A DNA stretch of 64,000 nt from positions 1,408,001 to 1,472,000 of the forward strand of contig OZ219816.1 of NCBI GenBank assembly GCA_964291235.2, written 5' to 3'. Of this stretch, positions 6,618-17,495 are shown one piece after another. Source of the DNA: Vicinamibacteria bacterium. GTDB lineage: Bacteria; Acidobacteriota; Vicinamibacteria; Marinacidobacterales; Marinacidobacteraceae. The first letter of the stretch is position 1. Each line of letters begins with the position of its first letter. The position numbers were made by a program, and so were the translations under genes. The notes below the pieces were generated by a model that did not search any database, was not told the DNA's origin, and was given only the letters and a program-made list of their open reading frames with translations.

Positions 6618-7571
6618 GTGGCGGAAACGACCTACCCGCTCGACCTGGAGGGGGCAGCGCTCCTCGACGGCTGGGAAGGCGCCGTAACCGGCGAAAACGA
6701 TTTCCTGGGTGCGGCGGAAACTCCGGACGGGAACGACGGGATTCGGCTCTGGTTCCGCTCGGATGCCGCCCGGCGGCGAGTGTTCGCCGAGTTCGCCCGC
6801 CTCGCCCGTTCCGCGGCGGCCGGAGCCGAAAGCGCCACGCGGGATCGAGGCAGCCTGCCGGGCGGAATCAGGTTCCGGAACGGGTCTCCCGAACCGCCGT
6901 GCGATTGGACGGCGCCCTACCGGGCGTTTTTTCGTGGGGTTCAGGCCGGAGGCTTTTTTGTCCACCCGCCGCACGTCCGGGCGCCGCCCGGGCTTCGCTC
7001 CCTCCTGACCACCCCGGGGCCCGCCTTCGGCACCGGCACCCATCCCACCACCCGGATGCTCCTTGAGTCCCTCGCCGACCTTCTCGGGTCTCGACGGTCC
7101 CGGACCCGGGTTCTCGACGTCGGGACCGGGTCGGGAATCCTCGCCGTCGCGGCAGCGCTTCTCGGTGCGCGACCCGTCGTCGGGCTCGACGTCGATCCCG
7201 TCGCGATTCGCTGCGCATTGGAAACGGCGGGCGCCAACCAGGCCGCCGACCGGATTGCCTTTCGCGAGGGGGACTACCGGGATCCGGAATTCGCGGGCGC
7301 ACTCGATACGGCGTGCCCCGCCGGGTTCGACGTGATTCTCGCCAATCTGTCCGCGGAGCTGCTCGCGGATTTTCCGGCGTTCGCCGGAGCCCGGCTACGG
7401 CCGGGCGGTCGAGTGCTCGTGTCGGGTTTTCTGCGTGAGGAGGCGGCGCGGATCCTGGGCGCCTTCCCCCGAGCGTGGGCGCGGACGGCGGAGATCCGGC
7501 TGGAACTCCCGGCCCGCGCGGAGTCCGAGGTCTGGGCCGCCGCCGCTCTCGAGCGCCGGCCTCCACGCTGA
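6618..7571 (+). CDS. prmA: Ribosomal protein L11 methyltransferase
   Basis: PGPAFGTGTHPTT, VLDVGTGSGILA and DVILANL motifs; in the conserved dnaJ-prmA-rsmE order. Confidence 0.9.
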   Translation: MAETTYPLDLEGAALLDGWEGAVTGENDFLGAAETPDGNDGIRLWFRSDAARRRVFAEFARLARSAAAGAESATRDRGSLPGGIRFRNGSPEPPCDWTAPYRAFFRGVQAGGFFVHPPHVRAPPGLRSLLTTPGPAFGTGTHPTTRMLLESLADLLGSRRSRTRVLDVGTGSGILAVAAALLGARPVVGLDVDPVAIRCALETAGANQAADRIAFREGDYRDPEFAGALDTACPAGFDVILANLSAELLADFPAFAGARLRPGGRVLVSGFLREEAARILGAFPRAWARTAEIRLELPARAESEVWAAAALERRPPR

Positions 7572-12889: not shown

Positions 12890-13633
12890 TCAGAAGATCC
12901 GGCGGCGCGGGGCCTTCGTTGTCTCTGCGGGCGTTGTCTCTTCGGGGGTTTCCTCGATCCCCAACCGGTTTCGCATGAACCAGACCACTCCATAGACGAG
13001 TGGCGTGTCCACGAGGGCGACGAACCACTTGAACACCACTCCGTTGGCAATCAGGATCGGGAGACGCTCGACGGTGATCTCCTCGGCCCCCAGCGCCGCG
13101 AGAACGCAGTTCACCAGGACGGTGTCCACGAGCTGGGAAGTGAACGTCGAGGCGTTGTTGCGGAGCCAGAGGTGGCGTCCGCCGGTTCGGCGTTTCCAGT
13201 AGTGGAACAGGCGAACATCCAGGTACTGGGCTCCCAGATAGGCGCACATCGAGGCCGTGACCGCGACCGACTGAATGCCGAACACCAGGTCGAACGTCGT
13301 GTCATCCACCGCGCTCCAGTCCGCGGCCGGCACCGCACCCGAAACGGCCACCAGCACCACCACGAAGATGCTCGCGAAAAACCCCGCGGTCACCAATTGG
13401 CTCACCCGGCGGCGGCCGTAGAACTCGGACAGGACATCGGTGCAGATGAAGGTGACCGGATAGGCCAGGATCCCGACCGAAAGCTCCATCTGCGGTTTCA
13501 GCCCGAGCAGTCCAAGAGCCGGAATTTCCCAGACGAAGAACTTGCGGAAAATCAGATTGCAGGCGATCAGCGCCGCGATGAACACCGCGGCGAGGGTCAA
13601 AAACGCCTGCTCCCGGACGCGCGGGTTCTCCAC
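12890..13633 (-). CDS. Queuosine precursor (preQ0/preQ1) transporter, VUT/YhhQ family
   Basis: GILAYPVTFICTDVLSEFYG, AQYLDV and LWLRNNASTFTSQLVDT motifs; about 6 hydrophobic segments. Confidence 0.88.
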   Translation of the reverse strand: MENPRVREQAFLTLAAVFIAALIACNLIFRKFFVWEIPALGLLGLKPQMELSVGILAYPVTFICTDVLSEFYGRRRVSQLVTAGFFASIFVVVLVAVSGAVPAADWSAVDDTTFDLVFGIQSVAVTASMCAYLGAQYLDVRLFHYWKRRTGGRHLWLRNNASTFTSQLVDTVLVNCVLAALGAEEITVERLPILIANGVVFKWFVALVDTPLVYGVVWFMRNRLGIEETPEETTPAETTKAPRRRIF

Positions 13634-13639
13634 CAGTCG

Positions 13640-14527
13640 TTAACCGTCTGATCCGGACGCCGGCGCCACCCGCAGCAGCCCGCCATAGGTGTCAACCCGC
13701 CGGTCCCGAAAGAACTGGAGCAATTCCCGCAGTTCCCGGTTCTTCCGGAAGTCGAGGTCCGCAAAGACGACCTCCGATTCCCTGCCCGCCCGCGCCAGCA
13801 CCTCACCGAATGGGTCGCACACGAAGCTCCCCCCGTAGTAGGTCATGGGACCCTCGACCCCGACACGGTTGGGTGCCCCGATGAACACTCCGTTCGCGAT
13901 GGCGTGGCCGCGCATGACGGTCCGCCAGGCCTCTTCCGACGAGTACTCCGGACGATCCGGCTCGCTGCCTATGGCGGTCGGGAAGAGCAACAGATCGGCG
14001 CCCCCGAGAGCGAGCAGCCGGGCGGTCTCCGGAAACCACGAATCCCAGCAGACTCCCACCCCGATCCGGCCGTACGCAGTCTCCCAGACGGGATAACCGC
14101 CGTCTCCCGGAGTGAAGTAGTACTTCTCGTGGTACCCCGGTCCGTCTGGAATGTGGTTCTTGCGGTAGGCCCCGAGTTGCTTTCCGTCGGCGTCGTACAG
14201 CACCGCGGTGTTGAAGAGCACGCCGGGCGCGGCCTCTTCGAAGACTGGCGCCACCAGCACGACACCAGCCTCCGCCGCCAGCCGGCCCAGTTCCTGAACC
14301 CTCGGCGAGGGTTGCCGCTCGGCGTGCCGCCACGCCTCCACCGCTACCTGGCGCGGAAAGTACGGCAGGTCGTACAGCTCCGGCAGGCAAACGACCTGCG
14401 CTCCGCCGGCCGCCGCCGCGCGTACGGCGGCCATCGCTCCCTGGTGCGCGGCATCGCGGTCGGGTTCGATCGCCCGCTGGATCAGGGCCAGACGGAGCTG
14501 GCCGGCCGGTTTGCGATGGGGAGGCAT
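13640..14527 (-). CDS. aguB: N-carbamoylputrescine amidase (nitrilase superfamily)
   Basis: Catalytic E/K/C in CLPELY, YRKNHIPDGPGYHEKYYFTPGD and VCWDSWFPETAR; also PTAIGSEP. Clustered with agmatine deiminase. Confidence 0.9.
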   Translation of the reverse strand: MPPHRKPAGQLRLALIQRAIEPDRDAAHQGAMAAVRAAAAGGAQVVCLPELYDLPYFPRQVAVEAWRHAERQPSPRVQELGRLAAEAGVVLVAPVFEEAAPGVLFNTAVLYDADGKQLGAYRKNHIPDGPGYHEKYYFTPGDGGYPVWETAYGRIGVGVCWDSWFPETARLLALGGADLLLFPTAIGSEPDRPEYSSEEAWRTVMRGHAIANGVFIGAPNRVGVEGPMTYYGGSFVCDPFGEVLARAGRESEVVFADLDFRKNRELRELLQFFRDRRVDTYGGLLRVAPASGSDG

Positions 14528-14596
14528 CCGCTAATTCTGCCGCGACCGGCGCCCGTGCGGCGACCGCAGCCCACGATCTGACACGACAGGCTCCGT

Positions 14597-15976
14597 TCAG
14601 CCAGCCAGCAGACCGAGAAACACGAAACCCAGGAAGGCCGCGGCGGCGCCGAGGAGCGCGTACGGCAGCTGGGTGCTGACGTGTTCCATGATGGAGCAGC
14701 CGGCGCTTCTGGCCGCGAGCACCGTGGCGTCACCGTAAAAGCAGGCGTGGGAGCCGAACGCGCCCGCGGACACCAGAGCCCCCAGGGTAAGCGGCAGCGG
14801 CGCTCCCAGTTCGGCAGCAAGCCCTACGACGACCGGCATGCTGACGGTGTACGCCCCCCAGAACGATCCGGTGGCGAACGCGACTCCGGACAGGGTCACG
14901 AAAACCAGCGCCGGGAGCATCCAGGCGCTGGCCACCGGCTGCACGCTGCCGATCACGAACTCGGTCAGCCCCAGGGCGGCGTTGACGTCACGCAGTACGA
15001 AGGAAACGAGGACGATCCCGAGCGGATAGACCATCTTTTCCATCCCGAGAAAGGCGCCGTCGGCGACGGGCCCCAGACCACTCGACGGCCGCACCGCCGC
15101 GGCCAGCAGCAGCGCCACGCCGAGGGCGGCCACTACCCCGAGGAGCGCGTCGCCGCCAAGAGCCAGAGTCGCCGCCGGCAGGGTCAGGATCGGCAGGAGG
15201 AACGCGGGCGCCCGGAGCCCCGGCCGCGCCGGCGGATCCGCGGTCGCCGGTTCCAGACTCTCGTCGAGTGCGGCCGCCGCCGGAGCCGTTCCGGCACGGA
15301 GCGCCCGCTCGGCCCGCGCCATCGGTCCCAGATCGCGGACCGCCCCCAGGATGACCGCCAGCACCAACAGGATGGCGAACCACGGATACAGGAGATAGGG
15401 GAGCAGCTCGATATAGAGGCCGATGCCGCCGCCCGCGTCCGCGAGCCCGTTCTGCTCGAACAGGCCGGAGATGAAGACCGTCCAGGTCGAGGCGGGAACC
15501 AGCACGCAGATCGGCGCCGCCGTGCTGTCCACCACGTAGGCGAGGCGGGCCCGCGAGATGCCGATCCGGTCCGCGGCTCCCCGAAACGCCGCACCTACGG
15601 CCAGGGCGTTCAGGTAGTCGTCCACGAACGTGACGATTCCCAGTCCGAAAGCGCCCAGCAGGACCCCCCGGCGGGTGCGCAGCCGGCGGGAGAGCGCCTC
15701 TCCGAAGGCTCTCGAGCCTCCGACCCGGGCGAGGATCCCGATGAGCGCTCCGAAGAGCATGACGACCAGGACTACCCAGACGCTTGTTGGTTCGGCCATC
15801 ACCGACTGGGCGTTTCGGAGAAAAGCCGCCAGAAAACCTCCCCCGGACAACATCAGGTGACCCAGCAGGGAGCCGAAGATCAGCGCCTCAAGAGGCCGGC
15901 GACTCCAGACGGCGAGTCCCAGGACGGCGAGGCTGGGGATCAGGCTGAGGACGCCCCAACCGCCGACGTCGCTCAC
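14597..15976 (-). CDS. NhaC-family (Na+/H+ antiporter-like) solute transporter
   Basis: WGVLSLIP, FVDDYLNAL, LAYVVDSTAAPIC, FATGSFWG, GAFGSH and HVSTQLPYAL motifs; highly hydrophobic. Confidence 0.85.
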   Translation of the reverse strand: MSDVGGWGVLSLIPSLAVLGLAVWSRRPLEALIFGSLLGHLMLSGGGFLAAFLRNAQSVMAEPTSVWVVLVVMLFGALIGILARVGGSRAFGEALSRRLRTRRGVLLGAFGLGIVTFVDDYLNALAVGAAFRGAADRIGISRARLAYVVDSTAAPICVLVPASTWTVFISGLFEQNGLADAGGGIGLYIELLPYLLYPWFAILLVLAVILGAVRDLGPMARAERALRAGTAPAAAALDESLEPATADPPARPGLRAPAFLLPILTLPAATLALGGDALLGVVAALGVALLLAAAVRPSSGLGPVADGAFLGMEKMVYPLGIVLVSFVLRDVNAALGLTEFVIGSVQPVASAWMLPALVFVTLSGVAFATGSFWGAYTVSMPVVVGLAAELGAPLPLTLGALVSAGAFGSHACFYGDATVLAARSAGCSIMEHVSTQLPYALLGAAAAFLGFVFLGLLAG

Positions 15977-16058
15977 CGGCGTGGAGTTCCAGGGCGGATG
16001 GGCGAGGAACTCACGGCCGCCGGCCGGACGCCTGCGCCGTGCACACCGCTCTCCTCAC

Positions 16059-17372
16059 TCAGTCAGGTGCAGCGCCCGGTTCGCGAACCGTCCGGCGTGG
16101 TTCCTGCTGGAGGATGCAGTGGATCCCGCCGCCCCCGAGATTCACCGCCATCGCGTCCAGCGGAAGCACTTCGCGGCCGGGAAACACCTCGCGCAGGATC
16201 GCGAGCGCCCGCTCGTCCTTGGCGCGGAGGCTCTCGGGAAGGCCCGGCTTCCAGTACTTCTGGGCCAGAACGAGACCGTTGGTCACCTGGAAATTGAGAT
16301 AGCTCGCGGCCGCGATGACGCGGATCTCGTCGTCGGGCCCGATCCGGGATCCATCTTCGTATTCGAGGGGCTGGATGTAGTCGAAGACCCCGTCTCCCTT
16401 GCTCATGGTTTCGAACAGGGAATCAGGCACGGGCACCCGCACGATGCGGAACGGATTCCCCTCCTGATCGGTAGCGGCCTGCAATCGCCGCAAGCTCTCC
16501 TCCAGACGCTCGTGGCTGATCGCGGCGATCGGGTCCGTTCGGCGTTCTTCCTCGGTGATCTCGGCGAGGAGAATGGTCTGGGGATCCGCGAAGCGGGCGA
16601 ACTCGTCCACGTGTCCCCCGGTGGTAATCACCGTGTACACGTCTCCCGGCAGCCTCCCGCGGAACGTCAGTTCGTCCTCCGCCATCCCTTCGGCCAGCCA
16701 GAGAATCTTGGAAACCCCCAGGATCCGCCGAAACTCCTCGTCCATGGCTTCCAGCGTCCATCCGGGGTTTCGCTGAAGCTCCACCGCCTCCACCGCGATC
16801 ATCACTCCCTTGCCGTTGAACTCGCGGGAGCCGCCCTCGCTGATGAGAGTGGACTTTTCCACCTCCAGGTCGAGAATTCCCGCGATGTGCCGGTCAACCG
16901 CTTCCTCCAGTCGGGAGTTCGCGCTGTCGGGCGGTTCGTAACCCCACATGTTGAAGCCGAAGTCGGCAATCCGGAGTCCGCCCCGATCGCCGCGCAGAAA
17001 AATGGGACCCATGTCCCGCATCCAGACATCACCGTGCGGCACTTCGTGAATCGTCACGTGACCGTCCGGAATCCCCTCCCGAGCGAAGCGTTCGCGAATG
17101 GCCCTCGCTTCCGCGCCGTCCTGAGCCAGCAGTTCGATCGCGACCCTTCCCTCGGCGGCCCGAACGATCTCGATCAACAACGGCTCCGTCGGTAGTCCAC
17201 GCTTGTTCTCGTACGTCGGCCACGCCATCCACAGCGCCCGGTGCGGTTCGAACTCCGCGGGAAAGACAAACGACTCCGTGGAGGAGGCCGCTTCCGGGCT
17301 CCGGGTCTGTTCCACCGCGCAGGAAGCGAGCGCGACGAGGAAGAGAACCGCCAGCCGGCTCCCCCTTCTCAT
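16059..17372 (-). CDS. aguA: Agmatine deiminase family protein with lipoprotein signal peptide
   Basis: PAEFEPHRALWMAWP, WMRDMGP, EGG, GHVDEFARF and GGGGIHCILQQEP motifs. N-terminus MRRGSRLAVLFLVALASC contains a lipobox. Confidence 0.9.
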   Translation of the reverse strand: MRRGSRLAVLFLVALASCAVEQTRSPEAASSTESFVFPAEFEPHRALWMAWPTYENKRGLPTEPLLIEIVRAAEGRVAIELLAQDGAEARAIRERFAREGIPDGHVTIHEVPHGDVWMRDMGPIFLRGDRGGLRIADFGFNMWGYEPPDSANSRLEEAVDRHIAGILDLEVEKSTLISEGGSREFNGKGVMIAVEAVELQRNPGWTLEAMDEEFRRILGVSKILWLAEGMAEDELTFRGRLPGDVYTVITTGGHVDEFARFADPQTILLAEITEEERRTDPIAAISHERLEESLRRLQAATDQEGNPFRIVRVPVPDSLFETMSKGDGVFDYIQPLEYEDGSRIGPDDEIRVIAAASYLNFQVTNGLVLAQKYWKPGLPESLRAKDERALAILREVFPGREVLPLDAMAVNLGGGGIHCILQQEPRRTVREPGAAPD

Positions 17373-17495
17373 GCCGCCCGAACACCGCACGGCCCCGACT
17401 ATACTCGGCGCTTCCCGGGATTCGCTGCCGGCGGCAACGACCCGTGGGTGACCATGTGCGGCAGGCCAAATGAGCGGCCCGACTGAGCAGCCCCG

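Follow-up and report, generated by a model that had tools for sequence, protein, structure and literature searches.

Genetic organization of the locus

The window, i.e., the whole stretch of 64,000 nucleotides (nt) that was analysed, covers positions 1,408,001 to 1,472,000 of contig OZ219816.1 in assembly GCA_964291235.2 of a Vicinamibacteria bacterium. Four genes lie in a row on its minus strand at 12890-17372. In the order of reading, they encode an agmatine deiminase-like protein, an NhaC-family carrier, an AguB-like amidase, and a YhhQ/Vut_1 transporter. With modest confidence, the locus is regarded as an operon for the salvage or catabolism of external agmatine, split over two compartments. 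The features are as follows.

16059-17372, minus strand: deiminase gene (aguA-like, long type; PF04371), 437 amino acids (aa) from the ATG, or 443 aa if the start is the GTG at 17390
17319-17390, minus strand: predicted signal peptide with lipobox L-A-S-C, Cys18 codon at 17319-17321; the span includes both candidate starts, i.e., GTG at 17388-17390 and ATG at 17370-17372
17398-17403, minus strand: -10-like TATAGT, 7 nt upstream of the conserved GTG, from the alignment with relatives
14597-15976, minus strand: NhaC-family carrier of a divergent subfamily, 459 aa (PF03553)
13640-14527, minus strand: AguB-like N-carbamoylputrescine amidase, 295 aa (PF00795, TIGR03381)
12890-13633, minus strand: YhhQ/Vut_1 queuosine-precursor-type transporter (TIGR00697)

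The intergenic gaps are 82 nt (deiminase to carrier), 69 nt (carrier to AguB), and 6 nt (AguB to YhhQ). No terminator-like site was found between the four genes; the two sites detected, against 3.2 expected by chance, were both within coding sequence. Upstream of the deiminase gene, gatC and gatA are placed in divergent orientation. The original prediction, made from the letters of the DNA, had marked 13640..17372, whose ends coincide with the stop of aguB and the ATG of aguA. Its gene set, i.e., a deiminase with a lipobox, an NhaC-family carrier, and a signal-less AguB-like amidase, was borne out. The host assembly has 3.45 Mb in two contigs and is 90% complete. The nearest loci, with 78-86% identity, were from metagenome-assembled genomes of Candidatus Marinacidobacterium, Vicinamibacteria, and Acidobacteriota.

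Agmatine deiminase-like protein

The deiminase matched PF04371 (PAD_porph) with 244.6 bits over profile positions 2-321 of 321. Its catalytic set had been predicted as intact, and all three motifs were confirmed, i.e., WMRD (W117 to D120), GHVD (G253 to D256), and IHC (I417 to C419). Across a family alignment of 24 sequences, these motifs vary little or not at all. For the Medicago agmatine iminohydrolase (MtAIH), the reported residues are the triad Cys366/His224/Asp226, the guanidine-binding Asp94, and Asp220, Ala360, and Asp89 at the amine end (PMC6447857). In the alignment to MtAIH, C419 corresponds to Cys366, H254 to His224, D256 to Asp226, and D120 to Asp94, D115 is also matched to one of the listed residues, and all five are invariant or nearly so among 24 clade members.

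The AlphaFold2 (AF2) model of the protein has a predicted local distance difference test (pLDDT) value of 91 and a predicted template modelling score of 0.87. In Foldseek, the top matches were 1xkn, 6nic, 1vkp, 3h7c, and 2jer. The nearest solved folds are thus a Chlorobium homologue (1xkn), plant agmatine iminohydrolases, and the Enterococcus agmatine deiminase, with 25-28% identity and E-values of 1e-33 to 1e-31. The exported peptidylarginine deiminase of Porphyromonas gingivalis (PPAD) ranked 24th and lower, below every agmatine deiminase, with 14-15% identity, and it was not among the sequence matches at E<=0.001. The comparison with PPAD that had been drawn originally is therefore weak.

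The deiminase belongs to a separate long-type clade of about 430 aa. From its relatives and gene context, the enzyme is predicted to convert agmatine, which is considered probable. The best pointer to this substrate is the partner gene, as AguB is adjacent in 28 of the 78 deiminase loci.

Signal peptide and translation start

The N-terminus of the deiminase from the ATG is MRRGSRLAVLFLVALASC, with the regions MRRGSR-LAVLFLVA-LASC. A lipobox rule, applied directly and not supplied by a tool, fits from both candidate starts, with Cys18, three K/R in the first seven residues, and the matching stretch AVLFLVALASC. Among the best 120 homologues listed, most N-termini begin with charged residues, followed by a hydrophobic stretch and a Cys (e.g., ..LTGILAC, ..TAICAC, ..LLAAC, and ..LIISC). 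The hydrophobic stretch and the Cys are kept in lineages whose signal sequences are otherwise unrelated.

The frame upstream of the conserved PAEFE motif was read in 78 related genome loci. By a heuristic of the authors, not a dedicated predictor, 46 loci were classed as lipoprotein, 18 as other signal peptide, 11 as none, and three as unreadable. The loci that encode a signal (64/78) are spread over at least eight phyla. As a control, AguB N-termini were classed with the same heuristic, and a signal was assigned to none of 28.

Of nine close relatives in the alignment, all but L002 share the block GAGTATAGTCGGGGCCGTG with the window. The conserved GTG at 17388-17390 is the sole possible start in the relatives without the ATG of the window. 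TATAGT 7 nt before this GTG suggests a leaderless or short-leader deiminase transcript; the consensus promoter scan gave no full sigma-70 promoter match. The N-terminus is likely to be MRCSGGMRRGSRL..LASC from the GTG, or the ATG form that is six residues shorter, and the lipobox is kept either way. The signal peptidase II (SPII), LspA, is encoded in the host genome (137.5 bits). In the AF2 model, residues 1-30 are the sole long stretch of low confidence (pLDDT about 47-50).

Another in-frame GTG, at codon 20, comes shortly after the lipobox Cys and would give a cytoplasmic form, which therefore had to be weighed. In three of the 11 loci classed as none (L002, L007, and L027), a hydrophobic stretch and a Cys are encoded in frame, with no upstream ATG, GTG, or TTG. 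An assembly indel or an unusual start is the likelier reason for the absent start codon. This start anomaly lies around positions 6900-7000 of these loci, and L002 is also without the conserved upstream block.

Truly signal-less deiminases, with no hydrophobic stretch at all, are those of L018, L019, L020, L024, L047, L053, L057, and L058. L042, which was unreadable to the script, looks signal-less as well. In the deiminase tree, from which L053 was left out, the signal-less proteins take several separate derived places, and L018-L020 are nested within the clade of the window on a long stem (0.44). This tree and the carrier tree were made with FastTree and have local support only, and the signal labels on the deiminase tree were transcribed by hand. 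Because the signal-less forms are scattered and L018-L020 are nested in this way, the tree is read as showing export to be ancestral in the long-type clade and signal loss to be secondary.

It can be stated with high confidence that the deiminase is exported, and very probably this takes place specifically as a lipoprotein. The lipoprotein claim of the original prediction gained from the clade-wide conserved signal, the presence of LspA, and the conserved start. A true start downstream of the lipobox had been named as the finding that would overturn it; the conserved GTG and TATAGT both lie upstream of the lipobox, and the signal is conserved.

AguB-like amidase

The amidase matched PF00795 (CN_hydrolase) with 200.3 bits. 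The best NCBIfam model, TIGR03381 (aguB), gave 305.8 bits and was covered at positions 2-277 of 279; the second-best reached 115.8 bits. Because the CN_hydrolase domain begins at residue 12, there is no space for a signal peptide. The predicted cytoplasmic location of AguB agrees with the control above, in which no AguB homologue received a signal.

Six Flavobacterium-type loci have the order distant NhaC-family gene, class-III aminotransferase, lipoprotein AguA, and signal-less AguB. The distance from the lipoprotein AguA to AguB is 27-110 bp. The two of these genomes that were searched, G051 and G052, also encode a canonical short AguA with another AguB next to it. As they hold two AguB, the exported enzyme would have its own dedicated amidase there, separate from the ordinary cytoplasmic pair.

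NhaC-family transporter

The carrier matched PF03553 (Na_H_antiporter) with 91.6 bits, against a cut-off of 23. It is far below the cut-offs of the more specific models, i.e., TIGR00931 (NhaC; 26.5 bits, cut-off 370) and the ArcD model NF052307 (32.5 bits, cut-off 650), and its best names are weak matches to Tet(35) and ArcD. The host genome has three further NhaC-family genes. The core of the carrier reads GSHACFYGDAT, and the paralogues of the same genome have the usual GDHCSPISDT.

In 22 of the 78 AguA loci, from Acidobacteriota, Planctomycetota, Ignavibacteriota, and Bacteroidota, the adjacent genes include a carrier relative of 40% identity or more. Nineteen of these are from the lineage of the window, and the others are L015 (an acidobacterium), L049 (Planctomycetota), L025 (Melioribacteraceae), and L070 (Algivirga). 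The order deiminase, carrier, and AguB is kept in 18 relatives of the lineage and in L015.

As the reverse test, 80 metagenome loci were chosen by carrier relatives with 33-89% identity, and AguA or AguB was found in the flank of 16. Neighbour genes were picked by a greedy longest-open-reading-frame rule, which sometimes takes the wrong strand at high GC; the AguA of L091 and L094 were seen by tblastn instead. By Pfam, the 126 immediate neighbour open reading frames (ORFs) of the carrier include seven deacetylases, eight class-III aminotransferases, six glutamine-synthetase-like proteins, five amidases, GNAT, and DAO, as raw counts with several near-identical loci and no formal background control. 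The histone-deacetylase-type neighbours belong to the family of acetylpolyamine amidohydrolases. For the glutamine-synthetase-like neighbour in L137, the best NCBIfam name is gamma-glutamylputrescine synthetase, below the cut-off. In a crude comparison, 73 neighbours of AguA loci without the carrier had none of the deacetylase, glutamine-synthetase-like, or amidase families; these are a subset of 108 picked ORFs, from which those of L018 and L020 and mostly short ones were left out. In the carrier tree, which does not hold the protein of the window, the link to AguA or AguB appears in at least five separate clades.

The co-occurrence check that the original prediction had proposed thus gave an NhaC-type gene linked to aguA or aguB in several phyla. 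Because carrier relatives adjoin agmatine and polyamine catabolic genes in many lineages, the protein very probably transports amines rather than acting as a plain Na+/H+ antiporter.

The carrier gene has been lost from the operon in two of the three signal-less lineage relatives, L018 and L020. The 2.7-kb gap between aguA and aguB of L020 was considered as another carrier and rejected, as it is filled by an IS1634-family transposase (255 bits, L020 8633-10525).

In one marine lineage (L100, L120, L128, L133, and L140; L101, L102, L105, L111, and L116), the NhaC-type gene is flanked by MatE, amidase-signature, and deacetylase-type genes. The amidase-signature enzyme of the L100-type loci (about 6372-7922 in L100) matched NF005686 with 699 bits. 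AguY, an amidase-signature N-carbamoylputrescine amidase, was described in 2025 (PMC12283126).

Agmatine supply in the host genome

The exported deiminase is the only PAD_porph gene in the 90% complete host assembly. No speA, pyruvoyl arginine decarboxylase (PvlArgDC), or OKR_DC_1-type decarboxylase was found in this genome at that completeness. The only decarboxylase of the alanine-racemase fold (fold III) is lysA (393.4 bits, cut-off 297.9). The genome also has genes for an arginase and an agmatinase-like protein. Because no arginine or ornithine decarboxylase was recognised in the host, agmatine is very probably taken from outside and not made inside, as far as the gene content indicates.

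As the sole deiminase is exported while AguB is cytoplasmic, N-carbamoylputrescine must cross the inner membrane.

A correlation of signal loss with an arginine decarboxylase was also considered and rejected. Among 16 related genomes of the lineage, whether they encode a signal or not, none had speA above the cut-off, which was exceeded only in G014 and G015.

The sole Spermine_synth match in the host is a weak domain (64 bits) at G000:C1:822029-825502 (L168), in a large frame with tetratricopeptide-like (TPR-like) repeats. The subfamily that fits this domain best is 'fused MFS/spermidine synthase', i.e., with a major facilitator superfamily part.

Predicted pathway and alternative explanations

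The deiminase would leave the cytoplasm via Sec and, after lipidation at Cys18, be anchored outside it, where a periplasmic or a surface-facing position are both possible. There it would turn agmatine into N-carbamoylputrescine and ammonium. N-carbamoylputrescine, a monocationic compound of the 4-aminobutyl type, would pass the inner membrane through the NhaC-family protein, whose subfamily probably accepts it as one among several related amines. Cytoplasmic AguB would then hydrolyse N-carbamoylputrescine to putrescine, CO2, and ammonium. We infer that the substrate is agmatine and that the carrier transports N-carbamoylputrescine; the same holds for the direction of transport and its coupling. 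On balance, the whole scheme, in which N-carbamoylputrescine enters via the NhaC-type carrier, is favoured by a small degree.

A wider reading is put forward more tentatively, and the balance leans slightly against it. The subfamily labelled 'NhaC Na+/H+ antiporter' or 'tetracycline efflux' would comprise carriers of 4-aminobutyl amines, i.e., N-carbamoylputrescine, agmatine, and perhaps N-acetylputrescine. The locus would then hold the first N-carbamoylputrescine importer and an obligatory split salvage route, and the exported clade would be widespread. As no arginine or ornithine decarboxylase was found, this route would be the only recognisable putrescine source of the cell.

Several observations weigh against the scheme, and most of them concern the carrier or the substrate; the heuristic signal classes and the raw neighbour counts described above also belong here. 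In L019, the order is AguA without signal, carrier (72% identity), AguB, and YhhQ, and the AguA is the sole PAD_porph gene there. Signal-less AguA of the canonical type also occur in L091, L092, L094, L098, and L108, beside carriers of 42-50% identity, and the deiminase of L098 is a canonical AguA (TIGR03380, 559 bits). Because AguA is signal-less in these six genomes, the carrier there must import agmatine. Specificity for N-carbamoylputrescine cannot follow from linkage alone, as the same carrier type accompanies signal-less AguA. Either the subfamily may take both agmatine and N-carbamoylputrescine, or its specificity may shift with few changes. Of the carrier claim in the original prediction, the linkage to aguA and aguB held, and the specificity for N-carbamoylputrescine is still a prediction. 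The same pairings favour another explanation, in which the carrier is a general carrier or exchanger of polyamines, agmatine, or putrescine, and the product enters otherwise or mainly ammonium is harvested outside. The deacetylase, class-III aminotransferase, and glutamine-synthetase-like neighbours elsewhere also speak for it, and so does the absence of an AguB match at E<=1e-30 in 13 of 34 further genomes that encode an exported deiminase of the long type (G024, G031, G032, G035-G039, G041, G044, and G046-G048; loci L023, L056, L060, L064-L068, L071, L075, and L077-L079). In those genomes, the exported enzyme must work without AguB, e.g., by ammonium release, or on other substrates. In the window, however, AguB has no other substrate source when the sole PAD_porph gene is exported, the three-gene order is kept in the 18 lineage relatives and L015, and no further transporter lies in the operon except that of the YhhQ type. 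A general carrier is thus the less likely explanation, at perhaps one chance among a few. It is very improbable that the gene encodes a mere Na+/H+ antiporter lying in the operon by chance. The Pfam family name and the three further NhaC-family genes would fit such a protein, but the score to TIGR00931 is far below its cut-off, the core motif is altered, and the gene recurs beside amine-catabolic genes in many separate clades.

The deiminase itself is below the equivalog cut-offs (TIGR03380, 170.3 against 381.8 bits; NF010070, 168 against 483 bits), and the amidase is below that of TIGR03381 (410.25). A clade-specific insertion of 15 residues, L235-I249, occupies the alignment site of MtAIH Asp220, the binder of the agmatine amine end, so the identity of the substrate is not proven. 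The acidic stretch E232-D233-E234 is retained beside the insertion, and D233 is invariant in the 24 clade members. Action on another guanidino compound, i.e., peptidyl or free arginine or another guanidine, with aguB adjacency that does not reflect a shared pathway, would fit the low TIGR03380 score, the insertion at the distal binding site, the Peptidase_C69 genes that adjoin the enzyme in L030, L042, and L048, and the many genomes that hold the enzyme without AguB. It is nevertheless unlikely, as the closest folds are agmatine deiminases, PPAD is distant in fold ranking and absent from the sequence matches, AguB adjoins more than a third of the deiminase loci, and the second AguB copy of G051 and G052 lies directly beside the lipoprotein enzyme. 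An ordinary pathway with a cytoplasmic enzyme, whose true start would be the GTG at codon 20 after the lipobox Cys, has little to recommend it. This GTG and the three loci without ATG, GTG, or TTG upstream of the hydrophobic stretch are in its favour. Against it, the hydrophobic stretch and Cys are conserved at the protein level across lineages of unrelated sequence, the -10-like box and GTG are conserved upstream, the signal is still in frame in those three loci, where an indel or unusual start is likelier, and the truly signal-less relatives have no hydrophobic stretch.

The Peptidase_C69 genes, predicted dipeptidases, lie beside the long-type deiminase in three unrelated genomes (L030 5325-6758, L042 5566-7008, and L048 8587-10344). 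These neighbours hint that some members of the clade act on guanidino compounds that are peptide-linked or of another kind. L042, from Vibrio ostreicida, also has a second, divergent PAD_porph gene in tandem.

Comparison with known agmatine systems

The two predicted reactions and the enzyme families are shared with the cytoplasmic AguA-AguB route, i.e., aguBA of Pseudomonas aeruginosa and the agmatine iminohydrolase (AIH) with N-carbamoylputrescine amidase (CPA) of plants. Unlike in that route, AguA of the window is a predicted lipoprotein of the long-type clade, with 25-28% identity to solved AguA and AIH, and below the equivalog cut-off.

Of P. aeruginosa PA14, Agu2A' is said to have been described by Williams and colleagues in 2010 as an agmatine deiminase secreted into the periplasm by twin-arginine translocation (Tat). 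The agu2ABCA' operon reportedly also encodes a cytoplasmic Agu2A. The common points are a deiminase outside the cytoplasm, given the reported secretion of Agu2A', and its gene beside an N-carbamoylputrescine amidase gene. In contrast to the reported Tat signal, the signal of the window is a Sec/SPII-type lipobox, and a twin arginine is not conserved in the relatives. In contrast to an operon with a cytoplasmic Agu2A, the exported deiminase is the sole one in the genome of the window. With Agu2A' as the reported precedent, the topology was called new in overstated terms; the NhaC partner, the spread of the lipoprotein clade, and the sole exported deiminase are new as far as searched. The agu2ABCA' operon responds to agmatine in the environment, and two additional deiminases are encoded in it (PMC4211729; bioRxiv 10.1101/299099).

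A dedicated carrier and an agmatine deiminase in one operon are also the arrangement of the agmatine deiminase (AgDI) system. This system, aguBDAC of Enterococcus, Streptococcus, and Listeria, has AguD as an agmatine/putrescine antiporter, and the structure of the Enterococcus faecalis AgDI is 2jer. It differs in that the carrier is of another superfamily, the second step is made by putrescine carbamoyltransferase and carbamate kinase, and all enzymes are cytoplasmic. PPAD is likewise an exported PF04371 member, with extra domains and peptidyl-arginine as substrate. The enzyme of the window differs in being single-domain, with an aguB partner.

ArcD of Halobacterium salinarum is an NhaC-family arginine/ornithine exchanger (Wimmer et al. 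2008, cited in PMC5300872). It is similar to the carrier of the window as an NhaC-family protein that serves a deiminase pathway and cationic amino compounds, and amine substrates are thus not foreign to the family. The kinship is distant, as the NF052307 score indicates, and the substrates and pathway are different.

Catabolic AguA-AguB and AguA-AguY clusters with a binding protein of the PotD type, i.e., of the ATP-binding cassette (ABC) class, are interpreted as serving the use of external agmatine (PMC12283126). This use of externally acquired agmatine is common to both interpretations. The carrier of the window is of the NhaC type and not ABC, and the intermediate rather than the substrate would have to cross the membrane.

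In the literature found, with most subscription journals lying outside its coverage, no lipoprotein agmatine deiminase and no NhaC-type carrier of agmatine or N-carbamoylputrescine was described, which is weak evidence of absence. As far as the searches reach, novelty lies in how large and widely distributed the lipoprotein clade is, in the sole exported deiminase of a genome without arginine decarboxylase, and in the NhaC-type partner. Overall, the locus extends a well-known pathway and does not represent a system of a new kind.

Dissolved organic nitrogen includes a sizeable pool of polyamines and agmatine, which also serve as signals between hosts and microbes. If the scheme is true, agmatine use starts outside the cytoplasm in many bacteria, beyond one Pseudomonas operon. 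A transporter subfamily labelled as sodium/proton antiporter or tetracycline pump would gain a testable substrate class, and the annotation would change in thousands of marine genomes. If the wider and more tentative reading is true, the exported lipoprotein clade, which occurs in at least eight phyla, would be a common means of handling external agmatine before uptake. The sister lineages offer a natural comparison, with the same carrier beside an exported deiminase in the window or a cytoplasmic one in L019. Because of this pairing, the question of specificity is directly testable.

YhhQ-type transporter gene

The YhhQ/Vut_1 gene at the end of the operon matched TIGR00697 with 136.5 bits, against a cut-off of 50.95. 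Of the 78 loci, 19 have a gene of this type after AguB, and L018 and L020, which are without the NhaC-type gene, are among them. The loci with a YhhQ-type gene besides the window are given as L002-L020, L027, and L029, and mere synteny or a role in amine uptake are both possible.

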